Assembly (NCBI RefSeq): GCF_010119205.1
Contig: NZ_WRXM01000002.1
Span: 22,982 to 54,981, forward strand
Source: Haloarcula limicola
Lineage (GTDB): Archaea > Halobacteriota > Halobacteria > Halobacteriales > Haloarculaceae
Length of the DNA: 32,000 nt
Direction: 5' to 3'
Position 1 is the first letter of the stretch. The number at the start of each line of letters is the position of its first letter. Both the position numbers and the translations under genes were made by a program. A model generated the notes under the pieces. It saw only the letters and a list, made by a program, of their open reading frames with translations, had not been told where the DNA came from and made no database searches. Below, in pieces: positions 6,599 through 21,081 of this stretch.

Positions 6599-8950
6599 AT
6601 GAGTGAATCATCGGACCGAGCTGGACTCCCGAAATCAGTTGAGTATCAACCCCTCCCCAATATCTACCGTGCGTTCGCCGCAGGGGCCTCTCCATACGCG
6701 ATAGTATCCGAGACAATTGACAATTCGATCGACTTCGTCCGTCGACAGGCGTTAGATGGAGCTAAGTACCCAGATACGTTAAAAGTAGAAGTCCGATACG
6801 AACCCCCTTCTACTACCGAATCCGATGCGGAAAACTCGGCTGTTGATGATCAGAGTCCCGAGCGATTGATAATTGTTGATAATGCCGGCGGTGTTCCGCC
6901 GAACGAACTGGCCCGATTCTTTCAGTTAGGCCACACGGATGCTCCACCTGAGGGAATTGGGCGCTTCGGTGTCGGAGCGAAACGACTCATCGGTATTGGA
7001 GACCGTATCAAATACGAGTCACATGCGAATGGATACGAAGTTGCTGCGGGTTTCGAAGTGGATGCTCGAGATCTCAAAGCCACCGAAAATAACAAACTCG
7101 CCGACGACGATGTCTACCAATCGGATGTTTATCGAGTTGATGATTTAGAGGAAGGCCATACAAGAATCATCGTTGAAGATCTGAATGAAAACGTCTGGTC
7201 AAACCTGCTTGGACGAGACAGAGATGAGATTGACGAGAGGGCTAGCGATTCTCTCTGGCGACTTGGTGAGACATACGAGCACTTCCTTCGAAACGGAATT
7301 CACATCGCTGCTCCATCAAGTGAAACTGAAGGTTCTATCGAGTTCGAACTCAGTTGGTCTGGTCCTGAACACGGGGAACAAGTAGATGTCCCCAATCCAG
7401 TCCAACTTAGTTGGCTACCGCTCGATGGACTTCATCCGAGACGGTATGAGCGACTTCCCTTCGCGAATACTACCGAAATCGAATTAGAGGACGCTCTTCG
7501 GGCCGACATCACGGTGGCCTTAATGCCCTCGTCAAAGCCCAAAGATGCTGGGCTAACGGTAACGATGAATAACCGGAACGTACTGTTCCGAGACACCGAT
7601 AACGATTTGTTCTCTACTCGGTACCTTGGCAAATTCCGCGAATCACAAGGTCACGGTCGGCTGCATTGCGTCATCGAATTATATGGCCCGGCAGAGGATA
7701 TGCCTTGGTCTGATACGAAGGATGGCCTCGATGGAACTCAAGAGATAACCGATCATCTTCTTAATGTCACAGAAAATGCCCTTAGCGAATATCGACGTCA
7801 GACTTACGAAAATCTCCCAAAATGGATCTTAGCTGCCTACTCCGGCGAGGATATACAGACGTTTGACAACCACATTCGTGACGAGATCTCCGAAACCGTT
7901 GAAACAATCGACAAATCGAATTCAAAAGTCAATAGCCCTCGCTTCAATGAGAAACCCGGAAGTACCGCAACTGGCAAGTACTATCGGTTGTATCCCGAAC
8001 GAGATGGTCTCATCAAGCGCGTTCGGTTACACTCGGAACTCCGAATTCGAGCAGACGATTCAGTAGCGATTAAAGGACTACCTGCTTACCGGCGTTACTT
8101 CGAGACGGAATACGATCACGAGAGCATCACAGAGCTCTCTCCCAAAGAATGCCCTGACCCTGAGGACTTTGAGGTGCCAGTTTTCGCAGATAGTCCGAAC
8201 ACAATCCCGTTGATTGAGGACATCAAGAAACTCGCAGAGACTCACGCCGCCGAAGAGAGAGCAATTACAAATGAGACCGACGGAGTGCCTGCTTGGCTCT
8301 TGCCAAGGTACCAAGAGGAGTTCAAGCAGCACGGTACCACCCTTGAGTCAGCGACCACCATCGGCGAATTCGATTTCGACTCTTGGCGTGCCAAGCACTC
8401 TACATCAGAGGACGTGCGTCGAGGACCAGAGTTCTCTGAACCCGAATCAGAACCGAGCCCTGACCAGCCCGACTCTCCTGATAAACGCCCAACACGTAGT
8501 TCCCCAGCCGACCGGTTAATCGAATCATCAAGTGAAACGACAGGACGTTCATCATCCGGGAACCATGGGGGTAGTTCCAGTACAACTGAGACGTCGAAAG
8601 GTCAATCGTCTGAGGATAGTACGGACCTCTCCAACTTCCAGAGGAGTTCCGTTGTGTCTGACTCCGGGACTGAAGAAGCCAGTATCCCTGAGCGAGAAGT
8701 ACCATCTCCAGATTTTGATTCACAGCAACTTGAAGAACTTCGTAGTGTGTTGGAATTAGACGACGACGCATCCATGGCCACTGTTGTAGACACTGTACGG
8801 GAGCTACAGAGTGAACGTCAGAGGATACAGAATGAACGGAAGCAGCTCATTAACTACCTTGAGCAGCTCAGTGATGTTGTCAATTTTGAAATGATTTTTG
8901 ACGAACCCCCAGATCTTGAAGCGCTGAAAGAAGACAAAAACGAGCCTTGA
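6599..8950 (+). CDS. GHKL-superfamily (MORC/HATPase_c_3-like) ATPase with long C-terminal region, Ser/Glu-rich disordered linker and terminal coiled coil (783 aa)
   Basis: Bergerat-fold motifs are present: VSETIDNSIDF (N-box ExxxNxxD), IIVDNAGGVPPNEL (DxGxG) and GIGRFGVGAKRL (GxxGxG). A low-complexity S/T/E-rich stretch occurs near residues ~600-720. The end is heptad-like: VRELQSERQRIQNERKQLINYLEQL. Confidence 0.85.
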   Translation: MSESSDRAGLPKSVEYQPLPNIYRAFAAGASPYAIVSETIDNSIDFVRRQALDGAKYPDTLKVEVRYEPPSTTESDAENSAVDDQSPERLIIVDNAGGVPPNELARFFQLGHTDAPPEGIGRFGVGAKRLIGIGDRIKYESHANGYEVAAGFEVDARDLKATENNKLADDDVYQSDVYRVDDLEEGHTRIIVEDLNENVWSNLLGRDRDEIDERASDSLWRLGETYEHFLRNGIHIAAPSSETEGSIEFELSWSGPEHGEQVDVPNPVQLSWLPLDGLHPRRYERLPFANTTEIELEDALRADITVALMPSSKPKDAGLTVTMNNRNVLFRDTDNDLFSTRYLGKFRESQGHGRLHCVIELYGPAEDMPWSDTKDGLDGTQEITDHLLNVTENALSEYRRQTYENLPKWILAAYSGEDIQTFDNHIRDEISETVETIDKSNSKVNSPRFNEKPGSTATGKYYRLYPERDGLIKRVRLHSELRIRADDSVAIKGLPAYRRYFETEYDHESITELSPKECPDPEDFEVPVFADSPNTIPLIEDIKKLAETHAAEERAITNETDGVPAWLLPRYQEEFKQHGTTLESATTIGEFDFDSWRAKHSTSEDVRRGPEFSEPESEPSPDQPDSPDKRPTRSSPADRLIESSSETTGRSSSGNHGGSSSTTETSKGQSSEDSTDLSNFQRSSVVSDSGTEEASIPEREVPSPDFDSQQLEELRSVLELDDDASMATVVDTVRELQSERQRIQNERKQLINYLEQLSDVVNFEMIFDEPPDLEALKEDKNEP

Positions 8951-9043
8951 CAGTATATGTATCAGAGTAATCGACTCGGAGAAACAGTTCCGCGATTAAT
9001 ATCCGCGATACATCCCCTGCAACCCACAGTATCTTCACCTCAG

Positions 9044-9790
9044 TTACTCAAAATCAGTCAGATCCGATTGGTCGGTCCAACCTCCTAAGTGAGCATATGC
9101 CTCTGGATTGTAGGGGACCCCCTCAGTGTTCAGTAGCAAATCAGGATACAGTTCCCATGCTAATGCAATAAGCTGTTGTTCGAGTTCTTCAAGGTATGGC
9201 GAGGCCCCCGTGTCTGGTGTATAGGGGCCTATATCGTCAACCTCCCAAGCTTTCATCCACAGATAGACATTCCGTTTGAGTCGACGAGACTTCGGCTCGA
9301 AAAGCGTCCGAATCCATCGCCCTTTTGAGGACCCTGGTGTCTCACCAGTGGATTCCCAAGCTGAATCGAAGTATGCCTGACTCAGACCGCCTAGATGAAA
9401 CGCAGTCCCATACCCCCATCTTGCGAACCGTGACTTCCGCTCCCGGATGTACTTTAAGTTTGGATTGAGTTTATACCCACTAGACGCGAACTTCCCCGAT
9501 TTTCCGATGTAGAGTGGGATTACATCTTTATTGGAGCCGAGCCAGTACATCACATAAATCACACCCTCGTACCGTTGCCCTCGTTCGTGGAAGTCGGTCT
9601 CAACATTTTCTGCCTGCTCAATGACCAGTCGCTCCATGGCCGCACTCCGCTTGAGAACATCGCGTTCGTGCGGTCCGTTTCCGAATTGCTCTGTCTGGAT
9701 CACACCATCGGCGTCAGTTTCGAACAGAGGGACGCTGTCGTCAAGATTGTGGATGTCCACCCATTGGGCCCAGACATCGGCCTTGCTCAT
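9044..9790 (-). CDS. GIY-YIG-family nuclease domain protein (248 aa)
   Basis: GVIYVMY followed 12 residues later by PLYIGKS gives the GIY...YIG pair. Downstream are Arg (RFARW), His (FHLGG), Glu (YLEELEQQLIALAWE) and Asn (LLNTEG), in the order expected for the GIY-YIG fold. Convergent with the GHKL ATPase gene. Confidence 0.65.
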   Translation of the reverse strand: MSKADVWAQWVDIHNLDDSVPLFETDADGVIQTEQFGNGPHERDVLKRSAAMERLVIEQAENVETDFHERGQRYEGVIYVMYWLGSNKDVIPLYIGKSGKFASSGYKLNPNLKYIRERKSRFARWGYGTAFHLGGLSQAYFDSAWESTGETPGSSKGRWIRTLFEPKSRRLKRNVYLWMKAWEVDDIGPYTPDTGASPYLEELEQQLIALAWELYPDLLLNTEGVPYNPEAYAHLGGWTDQSDLTDFE

Positions 9791-9968
9791 ACAGATCCCA
9801 TTTAAAAGCTGGAAATAAAATCCATCGGATTTAGTAAGAACACCGCCCGTATCGAGTCATAGATTACTACCCGCCGGAGAGAACCCGTGGAAAGCACGAT
9901 TTGATCTCCCAGCCCTCTTGCGATGTGTTCAACAGACGACTGTTATGGTATGCATCCGTCGGCTAGTC

Positions 9969-10541
9969 TTACCAAAGGTTAGGTCCACGGCTTCCACGAC
10001 GACCAATAACAAGTGAAAAGGTGAGTACCAGCACGATGCCAGCACCACCTAACAGCCACAATTGCTCTGGCGGTTGAACCTCTTGATAGGCTAAGTATCC
10101 CTGAATCAGTGCCGTCGCTGCCAGCAACCCAGTAGCCAGGGTTAGAACAACGTCTATTTTTCGACTCTCCGAACGCCACTTATCCTCTTTTTGGGTCCGG
10201 TACCAATCATGAGCTACCCGGTATCCCTCCTCAGTCAATCGATATACCACGAAATCTGTGTCTTCGAAGGGTCTGAGGTAGTGAACCAGTCCTTCATCCA
10301 GAAGGTGATTAAGTTCGATTATCGCCTGGTCTTCGGTAAGCTCTGTCTCTGTAAGTAGTTTGGAATCGGTCGAGAGGCTCTCTACCACGTCATATCTGTC
10401 TTCAGACATGTGTTCGGGTACCGTCATATGGCTCAAACTGACGACAACATCTGTCTCATACAGAACCTGAAGGACGTTAACCCAACCACGTGTTACCCAT
10501 TTCTCACCGTCAACGGTCCTTTCCATCAGTAAGTTCGTCAA
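9969..10541 (-). CDS. Membrane-anchored protein: N-terminal winged-helix-like domain plus two C-terminal TM helices (190 aa)
   Basis: The stretch LNHLLDEGLVHYLRPFEDTDFVVYRLTEEGYRVAHDW is wHTH-like. Two hydrophobic spans follow: VVLTLATGLLAATALIQGYLAY and LWLLGGAGIVLVLTFSLVI. Confidence 0.65.
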   Translation of the reverse strand: MTNLLMERTVDGEKWVTRGWVNVLQVLYETDVVVSLSHMTVPEHMSEDRYDVVESLSTDSKLLTETELTEDQAIIELNHLLDEGLVHYLRPFEDTDFVVYRLTEEGYRVAHDWYRTQKEDKWRSESRKIDVVLTLATGLLAATALIQGYLAYQEVQPPEQLWLLGGAGIVLVLTFSLVIGRRGSRGPNLW

Positions 10542-10645
10542 CTAAAGAGTCAATAAACATTATCAAACTATTAGAGAATCCTTCCACTCTACTTGCCATA
10601 TACTGCCACGACATTCCCCTTTAGTGGACGATTCACGCTTTGCAT

Positions 10646-11806
10646 CTAATCAGATATCATCGTTTCCCCCAGTTCTCGTCCTACTCGAGTCTGTTGACGG
10701 TCCGCCGCTACGTCAAGCAGACGACTGCACAGCGATAGTACCTGCCGAACGTTACCCTGAGAACGCTGATGAACCCATTGTAAGCATTCCTCCTCGAACG
10801 GGGCGATTCCTCCAGTCCCATCTACTCGAGCGGTATCTAAATACGAGGCCACCAAGTCGGTGAGGTGTTCGTCTGTCAACGGACGCAACGCTACCTCCTG
10901 ACCGATCCGTTCAGAGAAGGCATGGTACTCACTCATCACGTCTTGCCACACCTCTGGTGCACAGGCAAACAGCAGACAGAGGCCGTGACTATTCTGGTCC
11001 ATCAGATGACGGATGCTATTTAGCGTCGCCTGTTCGTCCTTCGGCGACAGCCGGGCAATACTTTCGAACTCGTCAACAAAGACGAACACACCGGTATACC
11101 CCAGCTCAAGGAGGATATTCTTTAGAGCAGTGAACGCCCGAACGCTCGTCGTGTCGTCGTCGAGGGCGCTATGAATCTCCATTTCCTTCCGTTGCTCGTA
11201 GCGGATTCCTTCGGCGGTCAGCCACTGCCAAGCGTAGAGGTTAGTATCTTCGTACACCATGTGAACGATCGCTCGTGAGAAGTCCGCAAACTGGGTAACT
11301 GTATTAAGCCGTTGGATAGCTGTTGGAATAATCTCCGAGAGCAGCAGTTCGCCCTCGTCGATTAACTCACACATCTCATCGGGCCTGGATGGATGCCAGT
11401 CAGTAATATCTGAGGTAATATGAGCGAGATACTCGTACGCGAGTTGCTGCACTCGATCAAACCCTAGATCGTAGAGGAACTCGTGGTAGATATCACGGAA
11501 TCCCTCCCCGGGTTGGGCGACGTAACCGACGAGTACGTCGTCGCGATCACGGACCAGTGACCGTGTGTACTTGAGCGTATGTGACTTCCCGTTACCGTAT
11601 TTGGCTGTGACGACAAGGTGTTTCGACTTCCCGGTACTGAGCATCGTAGAGACTGTGTCGCTAATTCGCTTCGCTGCGTGTTCCTGTCCGCAGTATATCT
11701 CCGGGTCGTTTTTCGGAACAGGACTGTAGGGGAAAGGATTCTCCTCCAAGTTGAACTGGGAGTAATCGCGCTGTTCGTCGGTAATGGTGAAACCGTTGTC
11801 AGTCAT
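10646..11806 (-). CDS. P-loop NTPase (AAA/ORC-Cdc6-like or DUF2791/BrxC-like Walker ATPase), 386 aa
   Basis: I prefer the ATG at 11806, 2 nt after the upstream stop, to the track start at 11881, which would overlap by 83 nt. Visible motifs are N-terminal NPFPY, Walker A AKYGNGKSHT and Walker B GVFVFVDEFE. Confidence 0.8.
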   Translation of the reverse strand: MTDNGFTITDEQRDYSQFNLEENPFPYSPVPKNDPEIYCGQEHAAKRISDTVSTMLSTGKSKHLVVTAKYGNGKSHTLKYTRSLVRDRDDVLVGYVAQPGEGFRDIYHEFLYDLGFDRVQQLAYEYLAHITSDITDWHPSRPDEMCELIDEGELLLSEIIPTAIQRLNTVTQFADFSRAIVHMVYEDTNLYAWQWLTAEGIRYEQRKEMEIHSALDDDTTSVRAFTALKNILLELGYTGVFVFVDEFESIARLSPKDEQATLNSIRHLMDQNSHGLCLLFACAPEVWQDVMSEYHAFSERIGQEVALRPLTDEHLTDLVASYLDTARVDGTGGIAPFEEECLQWVHQRSQGNVRQVLSLCSRLLDVAADRQQTRVGRELGETMISD

Positions 11807-12698
11807 CGTTGTTTGGATCGTATTCGAGGTCACGGTCGTGGACCGCGAGATAGTAGTATCGCTTGCCGAACTGTTCGACACCGCGCATCACTTTGTCGGT
11901 CGACTGATTAGTAGAAACGAGACTACCGCTATCGGCGATCGTCATGGATTTGATGCCGAGTTTCGCATCTTTGGCTACCGTATCCACGGGGGCGCCCGAC
12001 AGCTCTACTCGTCCGACATTCTGCTCTGCAAGACGAACCAGAGCTTTGTCGAAGGGATCGCGTGGACACGTAAACTGCTCACAGTAGTGCTCGCGCAGCT
12101 TCGGGATTGAAAGATAGCGTTGTCTTAGTGACACTCCCCCAGTCTCCTCCAAATCGTCGAATACTGACAACAGATGGTCGGTGAAGCTGGACGTGACGCT
12201 GTCGCGTTCAACTGGATAGTAAGTACCGGTGAACGCGTTGCGCTGGATACGTCCGAGACGTTCGCCCCAGTCACCGAGAACCTCAACGCTCGTCTGATTA
12301 TATGTCCGTCCGGTGCTTTGCTCTCGTGTCTGTAGATCTCTAAGGATTGTTTCTAGATCGGTTGGTGCAGTCTCCTTGAGTGACTGAAGGAGTGCCCTGT
12401 AGTGGGGGCTCTGTGCCTCCAAGATATTGTTGACTCGGTCCCAGTTCTCATCCCGAACTGCCTTGACGAGATCGACGCCTATCTGGGTCGCCAGAAACCA
12501 CGTCTCGGAATCCTCAGGATTATGTTCGTCAATCAGGCCGACACGCAGCGCTTCAAGAATTGTCTCGCGTGCTCGTCGGTGGCTGACGTTCAATGCAGCC
12601 TCGATTTCAGCAGTCGTTTGGCTTTCGCCTTTACAGGCATGGGTCACCTCAATAAGGCGAGCAAGAGTAACCGGTCGCACCGTGGGACGCTCGCTCAT
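11799..12698 (-). CDS. wHTH-domain protein of unknown function (299 aa)
   Basis: The N-terminus TLARLIEVTHACKGESQTTAEIEAALNVSHRRARETILEALRVGLID is a typical winged helix. The C-terminal ~200 aa are unrecognised. Its ATG overlaps the stop of the upstream TGT-like gene (ATGA at 12695-12698). Confidence 0.75.
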   Translation of the reverse strand: MSERPTVRPVTLARLIEVTHACKGESQTTAEIEAALNVSHRRARETILEALRVGLIDEHNPEDSETWFLATQIGVDLVKAVRDENWDRVNNILEAQSPHYRALLQSLKETAPTDLETILRDLQTREQSTGRTYNQTSVEVLGDWGERLGRIQRNAFTGTYYPVERDSVTSSFTDHLLSVFDDLEETGGVSLRQRYLSIPKLREHYCEQFTCPRDPFDKALVRLAEQNVGRVELSGAPVDTVAKDAKLGIKSMTIADSGSLVSTNQSTDKVMRGVEQFGKRYYYLAVHDRDLEYDPNNDD

Positions 12699-13762
12699 GT
12701 GAACCTCCGAACTTGCTGTTTCGCCATTTGATATGCTCGCTGAGTCACCTCATTGTGCTCGAACCGAAGGTCGAGATACGCCTCGATATCGTAATCGCCT
12801 GCGACCATGTACCGGAACCGACGAAGTTCAGTCACCAGCGACCAGAGGTTGTGTTGCGTCAGCAGATTCCGGTCCTTGCGTATGGTCGACAGCGGTCGTG
12901 AGCAGCAGACTGGGCACGAACATGGTAGATGCTCTAATTCCTCGATGCTATGGAGTTCCGTACCGCCGAATCCTGGAACAAGGTAGTTTCGATTGCCTGC
13001 GCTCCGGATGAATGCCGATGAGTCGAAACTATCGACGCCTAGATACAGCAACAGCGGCTGATAGACAATGCCACCTAACCCGTAAACGTGGAGATGCTTG
13101 TCCGTAACTCGTCGAGCAGACAGTATTAGTTTGGTTACTTTCTTGTAATCTGTCCTAATCGGCACTAAGCTACCGAGAGCATATCCGTCGAAGTCCCCTT
13201 TACGTTCGAGATATCGGAGTGTGTTCCGGATTGTTTTGGGATCGTGCCCATGAACACTGGCGAAAAGAAGTGCCTCTCCTTCGTGAGCATCGCTTGCTTG
13301 GAGTGCATATGTTGTACTCTCCTCAATTCGCTGTTGGTTCTCTACTGCCCGATTTTCGGGTGAGAGAGGTCGGTCAAGCGTCCCATAAATGTCTGCATCA
13401 AGTTGCCGTTGTGTTTCCAGTACTTGCTTTGGTGTAGTGTCGACTTCTTTGGAACGATAATCGAACCCACCGCTGTCGGCGTACAGAATAGTCTTACTAG
13501 GAACGCCCATCTCCTCACGTATCGTAGCCCCCTCGAGAAGACGATCCCACTGTGGACCACGCTGGCGGATTGCTCTGGTGTTTACCATTGCAGTCCGGAG
13601 GTCAGGTATACTGTCGGCGTACTCTGGGGTATTATCGCTCGACCGTTTTCCGATATTGCGGACTGGAAAGAGCACTGGTGTCTCCAGCGGCCCGTGCGGT
13701 GTCTTGAGCGTGCGGTGTCGGTACAGCATGGCGGCGCGCTTCGATAAGCTGGCGAGGCTCAT
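12695..13762 (-). CDS. TGT-superfamily transglycosylase, catalytic-core-only (arcTGT/DpdA-like), 355 aa
   Basis: TGT landmarks appear in order: ETPVLFPV (TPxFxPV), YADSGGFDY (DSGGFQ nucleophile motif), GTLDRPL, GYALGSL, LHVYGLGG, GVDSFDSSAFIRSAGNR and the Zn site CSCPVC...H (LTQHNL). No PUA or C-terminal tRNA-binding domains are present. I prefer the ATG at 13762 to the TTG at 13825; the ATG at 13729 is an alternative. Confidence 0.85.
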   Translation of the reverse strand: MSLASLSKRAAMLYRHRTLKTPHGPLETPVLFPVRNIGKRSSDNTPEYADSIPDLRTAMVNTRAIRQRGPQWDRLLEGATIREEMGVPSKTILYADSGGFDYRSKEVDTTPKQVLETQRQLDADIYGTLDRPLSPENRAVENQQRIEESTTYALQASDAHEGEALLFASVHGHDPKTIRNTLRYLERKGDFDGYALGSLVPIRTDYKKVTKLILSARRVTDKHLHVYGLGGIVYQPLLLYLGVDSFDSSAFIRSAGNRNYLVPGFGGTELHSIEELEHLPCSCPVCCSRPLSTIRKDRNLLTQHNLWSLVTELRRFRYMVAGDYDIEAYLDLRFEHNEVTQRAYQMAKQQVRRFT

Positions 13763-13766
13763 AAAA

Positions 13767-13784
13767 GGTTGGTTCAGACCAACC
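13767..13784. promoter_or_regulatory. Perfect 7-4-7 palindrome GGTTGGT-tcag-ACCAACC in the divergent promoter region (candidate operator)
   Basis: Read directly from the sequence. It lies 5 bp upstream of the 13762 start of the TGT-like gene and ~55 bp upstream of the HxlR-type gene. A TATA-like tatgtataat at ~13806-13815 sits ~25-30 bp before the 13839 ATG, a leaderless arrangement. Confidence 0.4.
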
Positions 13785-13838
13785 CAAACTGCAGATAATC
13801 CGGAGTATGTATAATGACCCACCAATCAGTACGGGGTG

Positions 13839-14117
13839 ATGTATAACGAGGTTCGGTCAGTGGTTGAATCAAAATGGTCGATAAAGATCCTATCGTCGCT
13901 GTCAGAGGAGAGTCCACAGAATTTCTCGACGGTTCAGGAGCAGTTCGATACCTCGAACGATGTCATCACTGATAGACTGAGACTCCTTGCCGAGTACGAT
14001 CTCATTGATCGGAGAGAGCATACTCGTAGAGATGTTCGGTATAGCATCACTAAGCGTGGTGAACGATTCCTTGATGAACTGAGGGATCTCAATTCATTAC
14101 TCAGGAAGGGACTCTGA
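13839..14117 (+). CDS. HxlR-type winged-helix transcriptional regulator (92 aa)
   Basis: SKWSIKILSSLSEESPQNFSTVQEQF...ITDRLRLLAEYDLIDRREH...VRYSITKRGERFL matches the HxlR/DUF24 pattern (W-x-x-x-IL...F-x-E/T...L-x-x-L...R...Y-x-LT-x-x-G). It is embedded in opposite orientation between the two TGT-containing operons. Confidence 0.8.
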   Translation: MYNEVRSVVESKWSIKILSSLSEESPQNFSTVQEQFDTSNDVITDRLRLLAEYDLIDRREHTRRDVRYSITKRGERFLDELRDLNSLLRKGL

Positions 14118-14134
14118 ACAGATCCACTGGCCTA

Positions 14135-14842
14135 CTACTGGTAGTCGCCCAACCCACTCTGTGTTGTGGGTTCAGTCGTTAGATACTGAGCCAACTTCTC
14201 CAGGCACTCTACGCGTTTCCCCTCACTACGATGTGCAGCGAAGTTCTGAAGATAGCGGCCCTTGAGGGCGACGACGATTGTGCCATGTTCCTTCGCTTCT
14301 GCTAGCCGAGCAGAAATCGATATGACGTTATCGCGATCCACGGCGAGACTCTCTTGATTGAATACGACACCCGTCGTCTCGGTCGGAAGTGCATTGAGAA
14401 CTTCTTCAAGGTCACACGCGCGGTAGTAGTCGCTACCGAGGGCCAGAACGACGAGGTCGTATGGTGGGTCCGTCTGTACGGCGTCACGGACGTTCTGCGG
14501 AATTCCTAACTTGATCGCACGTTCGTCAATCTCGGTCGCAGTCATATCAGAGAACGTAATGTCGTACGGCGGTAACTCGGTGTCTTCGTCAACGAGGCCA
14601 AACCCTGCACTAATGTAGACTCGATTAACCGTATCTCCGCTCTCTCGGAGATGATCAACGGCGAAGTCAATGTACTGCTGCTGGCGTCCGGTGTATAATT
14701 GTCTTGCCGGAATACCCTGAACCTTATCTCTCTCAAGTAAGGCCTCGCGATCGTATTGGTCGATTTCAGCGGCATCGAACTCGGATACGTTCTCTGGGTT
14801 ATCTTTAGAGCCAGAACACTGGCCGACGATGAGTACACGCAT
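14135..14842 (-). CDS. DUF6884-like protein (235 aa), function unknown
   Basis: N-terminal IVGQCSGSKD followed by IPARQLYTGRQQQY resembles the C-x-x-x-K ... A-x-x-LY-x-G signature I associate with DUF6884 (recollection only, not verified). Its start is 2 nt after the stop of the 739-aa TGT-like gene, so the two are tightly coupled. Confidence 0.6.
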   Translation of the reverse strand: MRVLIVGQCSGSKDNPENVSEFDAAEIDQYDREALLERDKVQGIPARQLYTGRQQQYIDFAVDHLRESGDTVNRVYISAGFGLVDEDTELPPYDITFSDMTATEIDERAIKLGIPQNVRDAVQTDPPYDLVVLALGSDYYRACDLEEVLNALPTETTGVVFNQESLAVDRDNVISISARLAEAKEHGTIVVALKGRYLQNFAAHRSEGKRVECLEKLAQYLTTEPTTQSGLGDYQ

Positions 14843-14844
14843 GG

Positions 14845-17064
14845 TTAGTAGTCGGTCAGTCCGGATTGCATGAGATGCTGTGGGAGGAATTCGTCTTCGT
14901 ACCCGAGGCGTTCGAGAACGCCGTCTCGAATGCTTGCGGGGTTGGTGTGTTCATGTACCGTGCAGTTGACGTCCTCAAGCCGACTGCGAGTTGCTTCGTC
15001 CAGCTCTAAGTGCCGAGCGTCGACGAAAATATCCTGATACCGCTCACCTTCGGTGACAAGGACGTCGGCTAGGCCGTTGGAGTCGAACGATGCTGTCTCT
15101 GGACGGTTAGCCCACCACTCGTGCAATCCGGTTGCCGACACAGCCCCGATTTCGGCGACAGGGAGGTCGTGAACACTACCCCAGAACGTCGGTCGATCGT
15201 TACGGAGATATCTCTCCATAGTTCCCTGTCCCATCACAGACGCAGATGGACGCGTCACGACGAGAATTTTCGGGAGATCACCCTCGAATTGGTCATAGAA
15301 TCGCCGAGTATTGTGGAATCCACGGCGCCGATTACGGTTATTCCCTCGAAAGATTGCGACTTCGATTCCGTTCCGTGTACAGATTGGACAGTCACACCGT
15401 TTCCAAGGCTTGGCGTTGAGAAGGTCACGGTAATCGTCCAGAAGGTTTGCATCGCTGATCGGGTCCCAGGTCGCGTACGCCTCGACGAGGGGCCACAACG
15501 CGTTGATAGTGCCTGGCGTCTCTGACTCTCGTTCCACAACGACATCGAGCAACGTTGGTGTCCAATCGGTGAATACTTTCTCTGCAACTGCAACCAGGTC
15601 ATCGTACTCGGTGAACGGGATCGGGTTCTCGGGATCATCGTCACGGAGAAGTTTGATCAACTTCGAACTCAGCGGGTCACCGAAACTCGCCCGGAACGCA
15701 CGCCCGTGGTCGTAGCCCGAACGGAATGCCTCTTCAGTTTCTTTGATGTACGCCACGTCATACCGCTCGTCGTGCCGGTGCTCGAGAAGGTACTCCGTGA
15801 TCTCACTGAGAGCTTGTGTCGCTCGGTTGTGCCATGTCTGAAGTGCATCTGCAATCGGCTCGTTATTGTCGAACGCCCGGAGGGCATACAACATCTCCTG
15901 CCCTCGAAGAGCCTTCTCGATACTCGTTTGGAGGTCGTCTCGATAGCTCGGGTACCGGACGCGAATCGCGTCATAGCGCTCGTCGCTGTCGAGATGGTAA
16001 TTCTGTCCCCCTGTCCACGCTGCACGGAGCATGCTTGCGCTGTCGAAACTCGTCATACCACTACGACCGATGGTCTCGAAAGCACCGCTCTTGGCGAATC
16101 CAAAGACGTGGGTGTCGATGCGAGTCTCGTGCGTTCGTTCGAAGCTCTTGATTTCGTTCCCAACGGCACTCACGATATCTTTGACTGCACTCTCCGGACT
16201 TCCAGCGACACCACCGATACCAAGATACTGATACCCAAGATCGAGAACTTCCTTGGTCGCGTTTACGTACGATTCACAGTCCCAACCCTGCACAGCGGAC
16301 ATCAGTCGGAACGAGTAATCCCCTTCCTCGTACCGTTTGCGCATATCGCGAGCATTGCGGAGCGTGAGATCGTACCGATACTGCATATCGTCGGCCCGAT
16401 AGACTGCCCGAGGGTCGCTACGGAGATGTGCAATGATCTCCTCGACATCCCCCTCGAAATCAGTTCGTGTGAATGGCTCGATAGTCGAGACGTGATATAT
16501 GGAGGGTTCTTCTTCCGCGACATACGAAGGCCATCTGCGGCTAGAACTGCCATCGCCGTTGGGCCACGTATCGATCATGACGTCGAGTTCCTCGGTCACC
16601 TCCTCGGGGATGTCACCTTTGCTAAAGTCCCCGCTGAAAGCACGCTCATTGAGATAGAGGCGAGCAGTATGGCCCGCCCCAAGGACGAGGTGGTCAATCG
16701 TCACACCTGTAGTCACGCCGAGCTGCTCGTAGAACTCAAGCATCTCGCCGTTGTCGTACGGTGGGAAGGGGAGAGATTTGTAGCCCCACGCACCACAATC
16801 GCTGATCGTCGGGAGCCATCTAGGCAGGTCCAGTTTGGATGCGTCGTAAATTCCGTTCTCGGTCAATCGCTGTGCCTTAGTCGAACTCTCCTCTGCCTGT
16901 TCTCTCGAGATGAGGACGCCGTCGATCGGAGTGTTCTTCCTGTCGAATAAGTCCCAAATATACGCTAGATCACGCTCATCGGTCCCGAGCGTCGAGTGTT
17001 CGTCGTGGAGAAAATCGTAGTTCGCGTCAACCCGATCATCCCACTCGGGAACGTAGAACCGCAC
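14845..17064 (-). CDS. Large TGT-superfamily protein (DpdA-like core with insertions and ~150-aa C-terminal extension), 739 aa
   Basis: GTG start. The N-terminus is MRFYVPEWDDRVDANYDFLHDE. TGT-like landmarks are ISDCGAWGY (equivalent of DSGGF), SAVQGW, YLGIGGVAGSP, TSFDSASMLRAAWTG and the Zn site CDCPIC...FHN. About 190 residues are inserted between the FDSAS motif and the Zn site, and there is an unrecognised tail after it. Confidence 0.85.
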   Translation of the reverse strand: MRFYVPEWDDRVDANYDFLHDEHSTLGTDERDLAYIWDLFDRKNTPIDGVLISREQAEESSTKAQRLTENGIYDASKLDLPRWLPTISDCGAWGYKSLPFPPYDNGEMLEFYEQLGVTTGVTIDHLVLGAGHTARLYLNERAFSGDFSKGDIPEEVTEELDVMIDTWPNGDGSSSRRWPSYVAEEEPSIYHVSTIEPFTRTDFEGDVEEIIAHLRSDPRAVYRADDMQYRYDLTLRNARDMRKRYEEGDYSFRLMSAVQGWDCESYVNATKEVLDLGYQYLGIGGVAGSPESAVKDIVSAVGNEIKSFERTHETRIDTHVFGFAKSGAFETIGRSGMTSFDSASMLRAAWTGGQNYHLDSDERYDAIRVRYPSYRDDLQTSIEKALRGQEMLYALRAFDNNEPIADALQTWHNRATQALSEITEYLLEHRHDERYDVAYIKETEEAFRSGYDHGRAFRASFGDPLSSKLIKLLRDDDPENPIPFTEYDDLVAVAEKVFTDWTPTLLDVVVERESETPGTINALWPLVEAYATWDPISDANLLDDYRDLLNAKPWKRCDCPICTRNGIEVAIFRGNNRNRRRGFHNTRRFYDQFEGDLPKILVVTRPSASVMGQGTMERYLRNDRPTFWGSVHDLPVAEIGAVSATGLHEWWANRPETASFDSNGLADVLVTEGERYQDIFVDARHLELDEATRSRLEDVNCTVHEHTNPASIRDGVLERLGYEDEFLPQHLMQSGLTDY

Positions 17065-17229
17065 TATTCAATCACCTACTCTGTGTTTCTCTTTTCGGCA
17101 TATTAGCGTACTGCTTCCGTGGTGGAACTGAAGAGGTCGGGTCCAGTGTTTTATACTCCGAACCGCTGAAGACTTCACTACATGCCCCACATTGTTCAGT
17201 CGACGACGCTTGGTGCAGTTAATTATATT

Positions 17230-17520
17230 CTAATTAGTGGAACCTGCGTGCTTGATTTTGCCGTTTCTGGTGAAGATGATTACTACACCTAGTCTAGCAC
17301 TGAGGACGCCGACTGGCCGGTAGAGGATGTTTCGCGGGTCGAAAACGTAGATGAAGCCCGTGTGATCCTCTATCCAGATGCCAAGACCTTCATCTGTGAA
17401 ATATCCGCGGATGGGGAGGAACACAATCAGGGTCCAGTTCGTTGCTACTGTGAGTGAGAGGAAGTCTATAGGTGGTCCATCTTCACTGAGTACCGTATGT
17501 TTATATGCTATCTGAACCAT
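17230..17520 (-). CDS. Hypothetical protein (96 aa), uncertain
   Basis: ATG-initiated ORF on the same strand as, and upstream of, the 739-aa gene. It has one hydrophobic stretch (WTLIVFLPI) and no recognisable motif. Its start is only 8 bp from the divergent queD start, which is awkward for promoters. Confidence 0.3.
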   Translation of the reverse strand: MVQIAYKHTVLSEDGPPIDFLSLTVATNWTLIVFLPIRGYFTDEGLGIWIEDHTGFIYVFDPRNILYRPVGVLSARLGVVIIFTRNGKIKHAGSTN

Positions 17521-17528
17521 CGGTGAGT

Positions 17529-18003
17529 ATGCCCGAGATAGCTTCAGGAGAATACTCCAGTAATATCTCCCTTGACGAGGCGGGCGAGCGGACCCTCCAC
17601 GTCGGTCGTGAGTGTCCTAACCGAATCAGTTCGGGGCACCGCATCCGCTACCATGACGGGAAGTGCTCCCGCCCACACGGGCACAATTACGAAATTTCAG
17701 TGACGGTCACCGGCGAAATCAGCGAGGAGGGGTGGATCGTCGACAAGGGCGACGTTACGGCCATCATCAGCGAGTGGGACCACCGTTTTTTACTCGGAAA
17801 AAGGTGACCTGCTCATTGAGGCATTTGAACGGTCGGGAGATGGTGACGCTGTTGTGGTCCTCAATCAGCCACCAACAGCAGAGGTGATGGCTGCGGTCCT
17901 CGAGCAACGTATGATAGAGGCGTTCCCCGAGAACGTCTCTGAGGTCTCTGTGGAAGTAGCCGAGACAAGAAGCGGGAACTCGGAGCCAACCGTTAATACG
18001 TAG
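17529..18003 (+). pseudogene. queD: queD (6-carboxy-5,6,7,8-tetrahydropterin synthase) interrupted by a +1 frameshift in an A5 run at 17798-17802
   Basis: Frame 0 reads ...ISSGHRIRYHDGKCSRPHGHNYEISVTVTGEISEEGWIVDKGDVTAIISEWDHRFLLGKR*, giving the QueD motifs C-x3-HGH-x-Y and DH-x-x-L. The +1 frame from 17803 continues GDLLIEAFERSGDGDAVVVLNQPPTAEVMAAVLEQRM...VSVEVAETRSGN...*, giving the QueD C-terminal PTxE and ET motifs, and stops at 18001-18003. Deleting one A restores a single ORF. An ATG at 17505 is an alternative start. Confidence 0.75.
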
Positions 18004-18022
18004 CTCTCCAGCAGTAAAAGTG

Positions 18023-18610
18023 ATGGAGAATAATCCTTCTCTGGGACCAGGACTCCAGCCCGAGACCCATGTGAGCGAGGAATACCGCGCTCTAGAGGAC
18101 GCTATCAATGCCTACTTTGAGGCGACGGACCTCCCGGATCAAGATGACCTCTACCGGGTGCTAGGCGACATCCTTGCCCCGGAGCTCCGGGAACGGTTTA
18201 AGACTGCCTATGATCTTGAACGACCTGCTGATACTCCCTGCATTCGGCGCCTGATTACAGGAGAAGAGGAGTGTACTTGTTCGGAAACTCGTTCGTGGGT
18301 GGACCAGGAACTAGAGCAGATTGGTGAACGCGGCGAGCCCCCACACGCCCCACCTCACGCCGATCACCCGACGCTCTGGCTTGACTCGAAGGGAACTGCC
18401 GCGGTCTACTCTATGCACGTCTACTCAGGCAACGTCGCTCCGTACTATCCCTCGAAAACTGCTGACTCAGCAGGCAATCCCCGGAATGGCTGGTTCGATA
18501 TGACTGACTGGGCGAGTCACTGGGGCCTCGACATCAGATTTTCCCCAATCTCGTGGTTCAATCCGTTTACCACGGTACAGGTGTTGTTATTCCCGCCTGG
18601 ACGCTACTGA
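18023..18610 (+). CDS. Hypothetical protein (195 aa)
   Basis: ORF with an ATG at 18023 (GTG at 18020), acidic composition and no recognisable motif. It lies immediately downstream of queD on the same strand. Confidence 0.55.
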   Translation: MENNPSLGPGLQPETHVSEEYRALEDAINAYFEATDLPDQDDLYRVLGDILAPELRERFKTAYDLERPADTPCIRRLITGEEECTCSETRSWVDQELEQIGERGEPPHAPPHADHPTLWLDSKGTAAVYSMHVYSGNVAPYYPSKTADSAGNPRNGWFDMTDWASHWGLDIRFSPISWFNPFTTVQVLLFPPGRY

Positions 18611-18700
18611 GTTTCTTCGGCCCCTGAACACAAACACCCTCTTCGAGGCCATCAAATGTGGTCCCTCTGAATACTACTATTTGCCACAATTCTGAACACA

Positions 18701-19483
18701 CTATCCCATATTTCGATAGTGACCTGCTGCTCTGGCCACCTCGGCATAGGAAGCCTGACCCATCCCAAAAAACGGCGTATGGATAAGGTGGACTGAGTCG
18801 TCATCAACTGTGAGTTTGTAGAGTTCGTAAGAGGTCGAGCGCTCGGTCGAGACCAGCGTCTCAACCTTCTCACTGGGATAATGGTTCAAAAGGACCTCTG
18901 GTGTCGGGTTGGTGTTCGTGTTCCCGTAGGAAACGATGCACCTTACACCGTTGCTCTCTTCGATAGCATCCGTCAGGAGATGTTCTCGTCCTGGAATCAC
19001 CTCTCTGTGGTATGCGGCCTCAGACTTCCAGATGTGGTCGTAGGGTTCAATCGTATCCAGGCTCTTCGGGAGTGGAAAGAACTCTCCGGTGAGGCTATCC
19101 CCGCCTCGCCGACCAAGCCGTTTGTTCTCAAATACGTATTCCTTAGCTCTTCTCCCGAGCGTCGCTGACGACTCCTCTAATAGTGATGGATCTTCTAGTG
19201 TCATCATGAACACCGCTTGGAATCTCCACGTTGACGGTCCAGAGAACTTCTCCAAGGCAAATCCATGCTTTTCCTCCCATACCTGTTTAAAGTCCTCTGT
19301 CAGTCCGAACTCCCGCCTTAACCTCAAGAAGTCCTCTACGTCGTCTACGTTGTTGAACCCCTCCCATCGATAGAGGCTTTCTTCGATTCCAATGAACCAA
19401 TACGGGCTGTCGAGACTACCATATCCGAGCCAGTTGTAGAGACAATCCCGAACTAAGGGTTCTGGGAGTTCAGACATGGGCAT
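18701..19483 (-). CDS. Hypothetical protein (260 aa); speculative UDG-superfamily-like pattern
   Basis: I prefer the ATG at 19483 or 19477, just after the upstream stop at 19470-19472, to the track start at 19555. The series WFIGIEES ... TGEFFPLPKS ... VRCIVSYG ... HTPFFG loosely recalls the motif A / motif B spacing of uracil-DNA-glycosylase-fold proteins. This is a very weak call. Confidence 0.6.
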   Translation of the reverse strand: MPMSELPEPLVRDCLYNWLGYGSLDSPYWFIGIEESLYRWEGFNNVDDVEDFLRLRREFGLTEDFKQVWEEKHGFALEKFSGPSTWRFQAVFMMTLEDPSLLEESSATLGRRAKEYVFENKRLGRRGGDSLTGEFFPLPKSLDTIEPYDHIWKSEAAYHREVIPGREHLLTDAIEESNGVRCIVSYGNTNTNPTPEVLLNHYPSEKVETLVSTERSTSYELYKLTVDDDSVHLIHTPFFGMGQASYAEVARAAGHYRNMG

Positions 19484-20225
19484 CTGGACAAACGTCGTTG
19501 TATTCGCACGCTCGGCACTTCGCCGCTTTCTCCGTTGGAATCGGCTCCCGCTCATTTCGCCAATATCCGAGAGCCCAGTTGAGGTCCTCCAGATACTCTA
19601 CCTTTGAGAACTCAGAAAGATGCAGGATGGCCGTCGGAGACTCAGTCAGTTCGTGGTCACCGGTCTCCCACCCCTCGTAACTTGCCATCACTAACTGCTG
19701 GAGTTCCTTTCCTGTCCCCGGTTCTAGTGATTGCTCGTGGCTAAGGACGGCAATCCTCAGATTGTCGGTGTGGAAGCCGAGACTGTCAAGAATGAAACCG
19801 TACAGCCATGCCTGGATTCGCTGGTTCTTGTAGAGGTAGTCAGGCCTCGACGTCGTCTTTCGTTCAAAGATAAGCTGCGGGCTCTGATTCTCAAAGAGAA
19901 CGGCGTCCGGAATACCACCGATGAGGAATTCCGCTGCCTCGCCAATGAAGGGACTCTCGACGATAACCTGGCGCTCACCTCTCTCTAAAGCCCGCCAAAA
20001 TTCCTCGTCAGAGACTTCTTCAGAGTCCTCGGCTGCTTTCTCGTGGGTTTCGCTCCCACGGGTCTTTGCAGGTGTTTCAATGTCCCCGTGCTCCCGAGTG
20101 AGCGCGACCTGCTTCTCGCAATAGAATTGCCCCGCAATTTTGCTCGGCGCCAGCGACGACTCCTCTGACTCAGATAGCTGCTTGACGAGCGAAGTATGCT
20201 TCTCTCGGACCCTCTCAATGCTCAT
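19470..20225 (-). CDS. Cas4/RecB-like PD-(D/E)xK nuclease with 4-Cys cluster (251 aa), not associated with CRISPR
   Basis: Visible motifs: N-terminal FYCEKQ (Cys1), GIPDAV...LIFERKTT (D...ExK), QIQAWLYGFIL (QxxxY) and C-terminal CRACEYNDVC (CxxCxxxxxC). No cas genes or repeats are nearby. Confidence 0.8.
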   Translation of the reverse strand: MSIERVREKHTSLVKQLSESEESSLAPSKIAGQFYCEKQVALTREHGDIETPAKTRGSETHEKAAEDSEEVSDEEFWRALERGERQVIVESPFIGEAAEFLIGGIPDAVLFENQSPQLIFERKTTSRPDYLYKNQRIQAWLYGFILDSLGFHTDNLRIAVLSHEQSLEPGTGKELQQLVMASYEGWETGDHELTESPTAILHLSEFSKVEYLEDLNWALGYWRNEREPIPTEKAAKCRACEYNDVCPDAHV

Positions 20226-20442
20226 GCTCTCAGTATACTCTTCAGCTGTTTAATATGTAGTGTCAGGTGACCACTTTTTAGATGCTCATCAAACTAATCT
20301 GATCGGCCCTATTGAAGCCCTCACCCACAGAAGCGAATCGAGACGAGAATGTCTAAAAATGGGAGCAGTGTCGTATACCCCTGCACCATAGTTCTCTGCC
20401 CCGTCCCCATGTTTAAGGTCGGACTCTGAGTACCACGTGTTA

Positions 20443-20652
20443 ATGACCGACACAATACCTGTGTTGTGCCGGGAGTGCGAAGAACCATGGAAAACGGTGG
20501 AAATGGAACCTCATGAATACGATGAAGACCGACTTGATGACGAAGGGAACATTACGATCGGGTATTGCAGCGACTGCATGGCTGTTCTAGCCGGTAGTCC
20601 CGTCCGCCAGTTAGAGCTCGCGGTGGAAGCGGAACAAAGCGACGAGCACTGA
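20443..20652 (+). CDS. Small zinc-ribbon protein (69 aa)
   Basis: ATG at 20443. CRECEE...YCSDC supplies two CxxC pairs. Composition is acidic. Confidence 0.5.
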   Translation: MTDTIPVLCRECEEPWKTVEMEPHEYDEDRLDDEGNITIGYCSDCMAVLAGSPVRQLELAVEAEQSDEH

Positions 20653-20828: not shown

Positions 20829-21081
20829 TAGTAGACTCGACCCTGCGGAGCGTCAGAACGTCGGGTGGGACAAAAGCGACCGGTGGGGAGTTCTCATACT
20901 GCATGTTAATCTCGTTATTTGTCCAGGTCAAGAACTGTCACCAGATATAAATTTTGGCTTAGTCAGTCGAATTCGACCGTCTCAGAAGATCACCACCTAG
21001 CTCGCTGCATGTTTGTACACAAATACGAAACTATAGAAATAAGTAATAACCTGAACAACAACACGTTGGAAACTATAACCG

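Follow-up and report, generated by a model that had tools for sequence, protein, structure and literature searches.

Does a cellular archaeon exchange guanine for 7-deazaguanine in its DNA? This question is raised by a stretch of 32,000 nucleotides from Haloarcula limicola (contig NZ_WRXM01000002.1, positions 22,982 to 54,981), which is called the window below and whose first letter is position 1. A preliminary description, made from the letters alone, had placed at 9044-18003 a cluster resembling the bacterial Dpd systems, with two paralogues of tRNA-guanine transglycosylase (TGT) and no ParB-type DpdB. That proposal was supported by every computational test, while its parts list was confirmed only in part: the TGT pair, the HxlR regulator, and the winged helix-turn-helix (wHTH) protein with its ATPase stood, but the missing DpdC, the GIY-YIG nuclease, the intact queD gene, and the location of the effectors did not. 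In summary, the island is probably a Dpd-like system placing 7-deazaguanine in DNA, with two writer modules and an exchangeable restriction module. This interpretation is based on homology, catalytic residues, gene order, fusions, and co-occurrence, from which I infer the DNA substrate of the second transglycosylase (TGT2), the identities of the bases, the role of the ATPase, and the restriction function; the substrate of TGT2 and the restriction function attract most of the doubt.

A five-gene cassette conserved in haloarchaea

Between 9044 and 17064 all genes lie on the minus strand except that of the HxlR regulator on the plus strand. The following five make up the cassette (aa, amino acids).

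14845-17064 (-), dpdA, predicted DNA-guanine transglycosylase, 739 aa (NCBIfam equivalog, PADLOC, structure, catalytic residues)
14135-14842 (-), DUF6884 protein, DpdC-like, 235 aa (PADLOC DpdC 8.6e-10)
12695-13729 (-), TGT2, arcTGT-type catalytic domain, 344 aa (PF01702 1.2e-29)
11799-12698 (-), p299, predicted tandem winged-helix protein with a C-terminal beta domain, 299 aa (AlphaFold2 (AF2) model)
10646-11806 (-), BrxD-like ORC/Cdc6-type AAA+ ATPase, 386 aa (PF10923 1.3e-14; the start is the NCBI call)

A scan with the DpdA alignment, restricted to one genome per species, returned 49 haloarchaeal loci in many genera, on chromosomes and on plasmids, as well as 11 actinobacterial canonical dpdA loci. 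In all 49 haloarchaeal loci dpdA is followed by DUF6884, and TGT2, p299, and the AAA+ gene are colinear with this pair in 41-42 of them. The co-occurrence in other genomes that the preliminary description had looked to is thus seen as five genes in the same order in loci of different species. This shared order exceeds chance, and the conserved core is dpdA, DUF6884, TGT2, p299, and the AAA+ gene. Nine haloarchaeal plasmids in PLSDB carry the cassette, and the PLSDB copies are haloarchaeal only. The closest relative lies on a plasmid of Salinigranum marinum (locus L061; 75% DpdA identity), in the order queC-folE-queE-queD / dpdA-DUF6884-x-x-TGT2-p299-"BREX ATP-binding protein"-HNH endonuclease.

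A metagenome scan with six closer p299 sequences (divergent, low-GC members) gave 37 loci with a GC content of 0.28-0.57. In 42 haloarchaeal loci the p299 gene adjoins TGT2, as it does in 33 of the 37 metagenomic ones, the other four being contig ends, and the AAA+ gene stands beside TGT2-p299 in the metagenomic loci wherever the flank allows. The contigs are non-halophilic, and some also carry Orc1/Cdc6 or endonuclease dU genes, which marks at least these as archaeal. The triad of TGT2, p299, and AAA+ stands without a dpdA within 8 kb in about 20 metagenomic loci, of which 10-12 have it facing a block made up of a Cas4-like PD-(D/E)XK/SF1 helicase (1062 aa), a protein of 616 aa with an MrfA zinc-binding (MZB) domain, and one of 552 aa with HEAT repeats. 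Conversely, three loci (L015, L026, and L027) have DpdA-DUF6884 without the triad, while two (L082 and L098) combine both in the arrangement wHTH / TGT2-p299-AAA+-UvrD-PD-(D/E)XK-(DpdA-DUF6884 fusion), all in the same direction. The occurrence of triad-only, DpdA-DUF6884-only, and combined loci indicates two separable, often joined writer modules.

DpdA and its DpdC-like partner

The 739-aa protein is 100% identical to an NCBI entry filed under Halomicroarcula limicola. It reaches 278.4 bits on the NCBIfam DpdA equivalog NF041059 (cutoff 200), matches the PADLOC DpdA profile at 2.8e-73, and gives no match to the arcTGT model. Its sole sequence match in the PDB is 7ui4, the DNA preQ0 insertase DpdA of Salmonella Montevideo (1.7e-38, in three segments), which is also the top Foldseek match of its AF2 model (E 2e-9). 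The general acid/base Asp95 and the nucleophile Asp256 of the S. Montevideo enzyme are known from mutagenesis to be essential, and D89 and D341 of the haloarchaeal protein align with them. D89, D124, and D341, the zinc site C557/C559/C562/H584, and the motifs SDCGAW, SFDSAS, and CDCPIC...H are invariant in 20 homologues. Judged by these models and residues, the 739-aa protein scores as a true DpdA; its family comprises more than 330 protein clusters.

Unlike the bacterial enzyme, this DpdA has two large insertions in the TGT barrel (residues ~132-227 and ~392-540), and its C-terminal alpha/beta domain (596-725, ~130 aa) is confidently modelled by AF2. A ParB-like or other known domain was looked for in this C-terminus, and Foldseek with the whole protein gave TGT and TIM-barrel matches only. 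Both paralogues differ from their relatives in a base-reading residue: DpdA has Gln259 where Salmonella DpdA has His181, and TGT2 has His at residue 160 where arcTGT has Gln169, each being invariant in its family. These swaps may bear on which 7-deazaguanine each enzyme accepts.

The DUF6884 gene begins 2 nucleotides past the dpdA stop codon, and in 32 of the 49 related loci DUF6884 is fused to the C-terminus of DpdA. Compact DpdA-DUF6884 fusions of 567-574 aa exist outside the Halobacteria (322 bits on the DpdA model; DUF6884 1e-16). Such fusion is strong evidence of a shared substrate. The DUF6884-like gene had been recognised in the preliminary description, rightly: the Pfam match is weak (2.3e-6; 28.3 bits against a cutoff of 30), yet the CxxxK and SAxxG motifs are present as C9xxxK13 and S78-A79..G82, invariant in the family alignment. 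What had been overlooked is the relation to DpdC, which had not been recognised in the island. The H. limicola protein matches the PADLOC DpdC profile, 18 of 18 aligned members, from halophiles and non-halophiles, match the DpdC profiles, and the match covers the N-terminal ~110 residues only. DpdC belongs to the DUF328/YaaA family. No PF03883 match was obtained for the DUF6884 protein, and phmmer and a profile search of the PDB retrieved no YaaA. The link with YaaA comes instead from the Pfam curators, who described the CxxxK and SAxxG motifs and related DUF6884 to YaaA/DUF328 by structural comparison, and from the PADLOC DpdC matches. The DUF6884 protein is predicted to be the DpdC counterpart, a distant DpdC/YaaA relative acting on preQ0 in DNA.

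The second transglycosylase with its wHTH and ATPase partners

Pfam, NCBIfam, and PADLOC agree with the first reading that two TGT-superfamily genes are present, coding for the 739-aa DpdA and the 344-aa TGT2, which are barely alignable to each other. The open reading frame (ORF) of TGT2 spans 12695-13825, while the real gene is 12695-13729. The motifs singled out earlier in the two proteins (DSGGF, SDCGAW, and CxCxxC...H) are real and invariant in the homologue alignments; for TGT2, these are DSGGF, GVDSFDS, and CSCPVC...H together with the catalytic Asp, across 23 homologues (mean column identity, 81%). TGT2 is 66-76% identical across 42 haloarchaeal loci. It scores 137.4 bits on the arcTGT model TIGR00432 without reaching the cutoff of 350, 43.9 bits on ArcS NF040592 (cutoff 440), and 27 bits on the DpdA model (2.4e-6). 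In the PDB it matches 1iq8, the arcTGT of Pyrococcus horikoshii, at 2.3e-21 over arcTGT residues 90-324 of 582. The C1, C2, and PUA domains and the ArcS motif PC-X3-KPY-X2-S-X2-H are absent from TGT2 and from the 739-aa DpdA; for the PUA and tRNA-binding domains this had been noticed before. TGT2, on this evidence, is a PUA-less catalytic domain of the arcTGT lineage.

The nearest viral relatives of TGT2 are the DpdA proteins of STSV1/2. GenBank phages gave only matches of 25-26% identity, to STSV1/2 DpdA and to Xanthomonas jumbo phages, a scan of IMG/VR viral contigs with the TGT2 alignment found no relatives, and neither TGT-like protein matches PF20314 (DUF6610, viral DpdA4) at E < 0.1. A viral origin of the cassette was rejected on the grounds of the empty IMG/VR scan and the low phage identities.

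The stop codon of TGT2 overlaps with the start codon of p299 by 4 nucleotides (ATGA), and the p299 and AAA+ genes overlap by 8 nucleotides. The translational coupling of a wHTH protein and a P-loop ATPase claimed at the outset is borne out by this 8-nucleotide overlap, the Walker motifs, and the PF10923 match. The p299 protein has no hidden Markov model (HMM) match in Pfam, NCBIfam, PADLOC, or PHROGs. Its AF2 model (predicted local distance difference test score, pLDDT, 84.9) retrieves wHTH arrays by Foldseek, all weakly (RPC62 at 1e-4; SspB 6lb9 at a query-normalised template-modelling score, TMq, of 0.34 and E 0.016). A hidden DpdB/ParB was rejected, there being no match in the four HMM libraries nor in the PDB with a 34-sequence profile. 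The same searches gave no match to DUF4007/SspB, and p299 may still be an SspB-like protein. The p299 family is small, with 107 representatives among 1.84 billion proteins. From its modelled fold, p299 is predicted to be the DNA-recognition partner of TGT2.

The AAA+ protein has 54 bits on PF10923 BrxC_BrxD (cutoff 22), matches the PADLOC BrxD profile at 2e-12, contains Walker A AKYGNGKS and Walker B FVFVDE, and is 71-81% identical across 42 loci. By these similarities it is the predicted motor for TGT2. It is also the sole core ATPase, of BrxC/BrxD type, and the absence of a ParB/DndB-like DpdB held: no ParB, DndB, or DpdB model (the last with its DGQQR motif) in Pfam, NCBIfam, or PADLOC matches the scanned ORFs of the window or the tested conserved neighbours.

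A putative regulator, divergent from TGT2, is embedded in the cassette.

13836-14117 (+), HxlR-type winged-helix regulator (PF01638 9e-8)

The same Pfam match upholds the earlier reading as HxlR. A homologue occurs in 8 of 49 haloarchaeal loci; in the metagenomic set, the position of HxlR ahead of the triad is taken in 22 loci by a small, divergent MarR/SarA-like wHTH gene.

The preQ0 genes and their decay

Where does the modified base come from? Among the neighbours in the 49 loci are QueE (26 loci), QueC (24), and FolE (19), accompanied by QueD, and these genes mostly form a divergent operon next to dpdA; adjacent que genes are lacking in about half of the related loci. Genes resembling queC often adjoin the triad as well (L082, L087, L090, and L098). 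In the window, queC, queE, and folE are absent, and two decayed genes lie upstream of dpdA.

17505-18003 (+), queD pseudogene, 6-carboxytetrahydropterin synthase (PF01242 4.4e-14 on the N-terminal half)
17182-17457 (+), pseudogene of a conserved 91-95-aa protein (in-frame TAG at 17290-17292)

The queD gene of the preliminary description is present but not intact. The frame shifts near 17790-17800, leaving the halves in different frames. The family of the 91-95-aa protein lies between dpdA and queD in 16 related loci and ends in a Cys-containing motif; the H. limicola remnant is 50-52% identical by tblastn, and its stop falls at a conserved Trp. This nonsense change is a base substitution, which speaks for genuine decay and against a sequencing error in a homopolymer. 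Neither pseudogene is a coding sequence (CDS) in the NCBI annotation, which instead has an opposite-strand ORF, 17230-17520(-), over the small one; this ORF is probably spurious.

It is proposed that preQ0 is supplied by the host archaeosine pathway, because the precursor arm of the island has decayed (queD frameshift, neighbouring nonsense codon, and no queC, queE, or folE).

Halobacterium salinarum UC4243 was reported to have 5-6 copies of folE, queD, queE, and queC, which were read as folate-biosynthesis genes (PMC10058572). Given the cassette and an H. salinarum homologue of TGT2 (P0220), these copies more likely belong to Dpd-like islands.

Candidate restriction effectors

The preliminary description had sought the effectors within 9044-18003, and the best candidates lie outside that interval.

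2315-5545 (-), UvrD/PD-(D/E)XK helicase-nuclease, 1076 aa, candidate effector (UvrD-helicase 2.7e-37; PDDEXK_1 6.5e-14)
6599-8950 (+), GHKL (MORC/MutL-type) ATPase, 783 aa (HATPase_c_3 6.7e-5, just under the Pfam cutoff)

Homologues of the helicase-nuclease (41-49% identity, with 49% to the copy in L042) stand beside the cassette in six haloarchaeal loci. Homologues of the GHKL ATPase adjoin it in four (L003, L042, L044, and L045), and in L045 the two halves of the cassette are separated by a UvrD/TFB-like/GHKL block. The GHKL ATPase is a possible partner of the helicase-nuclease.

Three sets of neighbours were distinguished. The first is the UvrD/PD-(D/E)XK helicase-nuclease of ~1050 aa (6 loci), the second a helicase with an MZB domain and a phospholipase D (PLD) nuclease, resembling DrmA/DrmC (14 loci), and the third an uncharacterised pair of ~305 aa and ~300 aa, u305/u300 (9 loci). 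At least one is found in 28 of the 49 loci, and the sets are nearly mutually exclusive, with only L034 having two. The restriction role is proposed because effector sets are embedded between the writers and are nearly mutually exclusive.

Haloarcula vallismortis ATCC 29715 (L049, 10-16128) has the second set in a complete version of the system: helicase-MZB, PLD, queC-folE-queE-queD, the DpdA-DUF6884 fusion, TGT2, p299, and AAA+. This species is the laboratory host of the halovirus HVTV-1, whose DNA carries dPreQ1 (the deoxynucleoside of preQ1). That the host has a complete system suggests a host-virus arms race with the same chemistry.

A proposed mechanism and its alternatives

How would such a system work? 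In the first module, DpdA would swap guanine for preQ0 in double-stranded DNA by TGT double displacement, as its homology implies, and the DUF6884 enzyme would convert the DNA-bound nitrile, most likely to the amide (dADG, 2'-deoxy-7-amido-7-deazaguanosine), by analogy with DpdC. In the second module, p299 would bring TGT2 to DNA and the BrxD-like AAA+ ATPase would power it, TGT2 inserting preQ0, or a base closely related to it, at a set of sites of its own. The p299 and AAA+ pair would thus stand in for the ParB-like ATPase DpdB of bacterial DpdA. The variable effector would attack unmarked incoming DNA; here it would be the UvrD/PD-(D/E)XK helicase-nuclease, possibly with the GHKL ATPase.

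TGT2 is taken as a DNA writer because its catalytic site is invariant, its operon is obligate, and triad-only loci lie beside nuclease blocks. A need of TGT2 for an ATPase is suggested by two analogies. Bacterial DpdA requires an ATPase partner (DpdB) and the pair needs ATP, and the DNA-modifying enzymes of Ssp and type 4 BREX work with a wHTH-array protein and a BrxC-like ATPase.

A bolder version, in which my belief falls slightly short of my disbelief, is that the TGT2/p299/AAA+ triad is a self-contained machine, hitherto undescribed and driven by ATP, that exchanges DNA bases in at least two archaeal lineages and is paired in Halobacteria with a DpdA-DpdC-like fusion. The two modules would make two distinct marks, or mark two classes of sites, to be read by exchangeable helicase-nucleases. 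Cellular archaea would then have their first 7-deazaguanine restriction-modification system, locked in an arms race with haloviruses whose DNA is deazaguanine-modified.

Several points weigh against the Dpd-like interpretation as a whole. TGT2 scores far higher on the arcTGT model (137 bits) than on the DpdA model (27 bits), and an RNA substrate is therefore compatible with its sequence. The p299 protein has no significant sequence relative of known function and its fold matches stay at TM <=0.34, while the AAA+ protein obtains only 46 bits on the NCBIfam BrxD model NF033438 (cutoff 350). None of the three effector sets is seen within 10 kb in 21 of the 49 haloarchaeal loci, so restriction may be absent, distant, or unrecognised, and the UvrD gene, with its host-like GC of ~0.63, might be merely co-resident in a defence island. 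The two pseudogenes raise the chance that this copy is decaying. Finally, the interpretation does not account for a need for two writers.

If restriction is doubted, the cassette could instead protect the DNA of the mobile element, and incidentally that of the host, against host restriction, as tailed viruses do, with no dedicated restriction partner and with the nearby nucleases as unrelated residents of a defence island. I consider this unlikely. It is consistent with the many plasmid copies (including the nine in PLSDB), with the integrase carried by the island, and with the 21 loci lacking a recognisable effector set, and phage and viral DpdA systems work exactly so. On the other hand, no TGT2 relative was found in the scan of IMG/VR viral contigs, L045, L082, and L098 have helicase and nuclease genes set in between their writer modules, and the near mutual exclusivity of the effector sets is the pattern expected of systems resembling restriction-modification.

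It is quite unlikely that the H. limicola copy is a decaying, non-functional relic of a family that functions elsewhere, a view that would leave the Dpd-like interpretation of the family untouched. The frameshift in queD, the adjacent nonsense codon, which as a substitution is unlikely to be a homopolymer error, and the absence of queC, queE, and folE speak for it. Yet each of the five core genes is full length compared with its homologues, as are the genes for the UvrD-nuclease and the GHKL ATPase, and the catalytic residues are intact; about half of the related loci likewise lack adjacent que genes, and preQ0 could come from the host archaeosine pathway, as is generally known.

Might the triad read or erase the mark rather than write it? 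It would then recognise viral DNA containing 7-deazaguanine and restore guanine or form a covalent adduct, re-sensitising the DNA to restriction, with DpdA-DUF6884 as the sole writer. TGT enzymes exchange bases by way of a covalent intermediate, DNA modification is known from haloviruses such as HVTV-1 and their laboratory host H. vallismortis has the cassette, glycosylases targeting deazaguanine DNA are now known as defence proteins, and the triad adjoins nuclease blocks where dpdA is missing. Nevertheless, this appears improbable: the queC-like genes beside the triad (L082, L087, L090, and L098) fit a demand for preQ0, and the triad is tightly co-conserved with the preQ0 pathway in Halobacteria.

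That one or both TGT paralogues modify tRNA or other RNA as extra archaeosine-pathway enzymes on a mobile element, beside DNA-related neighbours by coincidence, is very improbable, since, for all that the best curated match of TGT2 is arcTGT, its best solved relative that of P. horikoshii, and split forms of arcTGT and ArcS known in archaea from the literature, both proteins lack C1, C2, PUA, and the ArcS motif, TGT2 stays at 137 bits against the arcTGT cutoff of 350, the 739-aa protein passes the DpdA equivalog model, linkage to wHTH, AAA+, helicase, and nuclease genes is strict in two archaeal lineages, and the cassette is mobile and patchily distributed.

Other genes and the borders of the island

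The Dpd-like cassette lies in an island whose mobile, low-GC character, first read from the letters, is corroborated by composition and by an integrase. GC is ~0.48-0.56 across ~6000-25000 of the window and 0.63-0.70 in the flanks; at the right edge it climbs from ~0.50 to 0.64 at ~24.7-25.1 kb. The remaining features are as follows.

1553-2029 (+), DUF7344 winged-helix protein
9044-9790 (-), 248-aa protein, earlier read as GIY-YIG, locus-specific
9969-10541 (-), 190-aa protein, weak wHTH signal (HTH_45 E 0.041), two predicted membrane helices, locus-specific
18701-19555 (-), 284-aa ORF without library matches, overlapping the Cas4-like gene by 86 nucleotides
19470-20225 (-), Cas4-like PD-(D/E)XK nuclease with C-terminal cysteines
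23505-24749 (-), XerA-like tyrosine integrase (Phage_integrase 2.4e-21; NF040815 7.5e-35)

The integrase gene stands at the right edge of the low-GC island, where the gene for the large subunit of replication factor C (RFC) adjoins it. No convincing att direct repeats were found around the island and no tRNA genes within the window. The UvrD/PD-(D/E)XK region (window 2500-6000) has a host-like GC of ~0.63 between low-GC segments, which makes the island a mosaic of different ages. A Dam-like N6-adenine methyltransferase gene (PF02086; L099:19669-20496) lies just left of window position 1, beside the low-GC left end; the island therefore continues past the edge of the window and may include another modification system. 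Members of the DUF7344 family are found at most 10 kb from the cassette in 18 of 49 related loci, and this protein may be an island-associated regulator.

Two genes downstream of the AAA+ gene had been counted as parts of the system. The supposed GIY-YIG nuclease, the 248-aa protein, has no match in Pfam, NCBIfam, PADLOC, PHROGs, or PDB sequences and shows merely a loose VIY-x16-YIG pattern, so that no domain model supports the name. In the membrane wHTH protein of 190 aa, the two hydrophobic helices were found (128-150 and 160-181) but the wHTH signal is weak (E 0.04), and its membership of the system fell away. Both were rejected as core parts because they are conserved in 0 of 49 related loci, among which there is no conserved co-directional gene after the AAA+ gene. 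Homologues of the 196-aa and 284-aa ORFs, the Cas4-like gene, and the integrase are likewise found in 0 of 49 loci each; thus neither the Cas4-like gene nor the 284-aa ORF is kept next to the cassette elsewhere, and the window contains neither a CRISPR array nor cas1.

Where the window has its two locus-specific genes, the S. marinum plasmid (L061; 6530-8617, 21717-22751) has an HNH endonuclease gene directly 3' of AAA+, and genes for a ThiF-type E1 and an E2/UBC lie upstream. A 223-aa protein without library matches is encoded directly upstream of or near dpdA in 15 of 49 loci (e.g., L016:9249-9920 (+)) and is absent from the window; it is possibly a further component.

Comparison with known systems

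The cassette very probably works like the bacterial Dpd system (dpdA-K of Salmonella Montevideo), as far as homology can tell. The two share a DpdA-family enzyme with the same catalytic Asp pair and zinc site, a second enzyme (here predicted) of the DpdC superfamily, a frequent clustering with preQ0 genes, carriage on genomic islands, and helicase or nuclease neighbours; the need for an ATPase would also be met by a neighbouring gene in the cassette. The differences are equally clear. The cassette has neither a ParB/DndB-like DpdB nor DpdD-K. The DpdC slot would be filled by a distant DUF6884 branch, often fused to DpdA, and DpdA itself has the two large insertions and the extra C-terminal domain. 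Only the cassette has an arcTGT-type second transglycosylase with its own wHTH and AAA+ partners, and its effectors are a UvrD-nuclease, a helicase-MZB with PLD, or others. No DpdD-K match was found in the window, and a helicase in related loci gave only weak helicase-domain matches to DpdF and DpdJ. As the tests for a ParB-like DpdB and for DpdD-K failed, the cassette is not a canonical Dpd member.

With the DpdA pathways of phages and archaeal viruses (DpdA1-4 with FolE/QueCDE), the cassette shares a DpdA-type enzyme beside folE-queD-queE-queC and a DpdA that may act without DpdB. In contrast to them, it is cellular or plasmid-borne, has no IMG/VR relative, is not of the DUF6610-type DpdA4 of haloviruses, and contains two TGT paralogues and the AAA+/wHTH pair. 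With arcTGT/TgtA, TGT2 shares the catalytic barrel, the Asp residues, and the CxCxxC...H zinc site, and its GxxVP pocket segment resembles that of preQ0-specific arcTGT. It differs in its length of 344 aa without C1/C2/PUA, in its score (137 bits against 350), in the His replacing Gln169, and in being mobile, patchy, and operonic with DNA-binding proteins.

The second module resembles SspBCD and type 4 BREX (DUF4007/SspB with a BrxC-like ATPase), in which a multi-wHTH protein, an ORC/Cdc6-type AAA+ protein, and a DNA-modifying enzyme likewise share an operon. The enzyme of the cassette is a transglycosylase and theirs a 3'-phosphoadenosine 5'-phosphosulfate (PAPS) reductase; p299 has no sequence similarity to DUF4007 and a weak SspB fold match, and the ATPase is a short BrxD-like form without the extra domains of BrxC. 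The BREX type 2 genes PglW, PglX, PglZ, and BrxHI are not found in the window, and the AAA+ protein fails the BrxD equivalog.

The recently proposed BRC system (NAR 2026, PMC12839542) combines a TGT homologue, an ORC/Cdc6-type ATPase, and a DUF4007 protein, has archaeal members, and lacks DpdB. Its defining components are HerA/FtsK, which is universal, together with PglZ, a STAND NTPase, and GNAT, and according to its authors DpdC is missing (PMC12839542). The TGT, the ORC/Cdc6-type ATPase, the wHTH-array protein, and the lack of DpdB are common to both, whereas the cassette has DpdA and a DpdC-like enzyme. No HerA/FtsK, PglZ, DUF6079, STAND NTPase, or GNAT gene was found in the scanned window ORFs or the tested conserved haloarchaeal neighbours, and DUF87/HerA-like genes are confined to 4 of the 37 metagenomic loci.

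In the searchable literature on DpdA, tgtA5, DUF6884, and deazaguanine in haloarchaea, which leaves some key older papers uncovered, no description of the cassette was found; 7-deazaguanine in DNA is known there for bacteria, phages, and archaeal viruses and not for archaeal chromosomes or plasmids. The cassette is widespread, yet annotated only as a tRNA transglycosylase and hypothetical proteins. Since intact versions exist in several culturable organisms, with que genes in Haloarcula vallismortis ATCC 29715, in Haloferax gibbonsii ATCC 33959, and on the Salinigranum marinum ZS-10 plasmid, and genetic tools are available for the cassette-carrying genus Haloferax, the proposal is directly testable. 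If the cassette is active, a second domain of life makes use of the Dpd principle, and a natural two-transglycosylase system is at hand for asking how TGT enzymes pick DNA over tRNA. It would also mean that an ORC/Cdc6-type AAA+ protein and a winged-helix array can replace a ParB-type DpdB, as their counterparts do for other chemistry in Ssp and BREX type 4.

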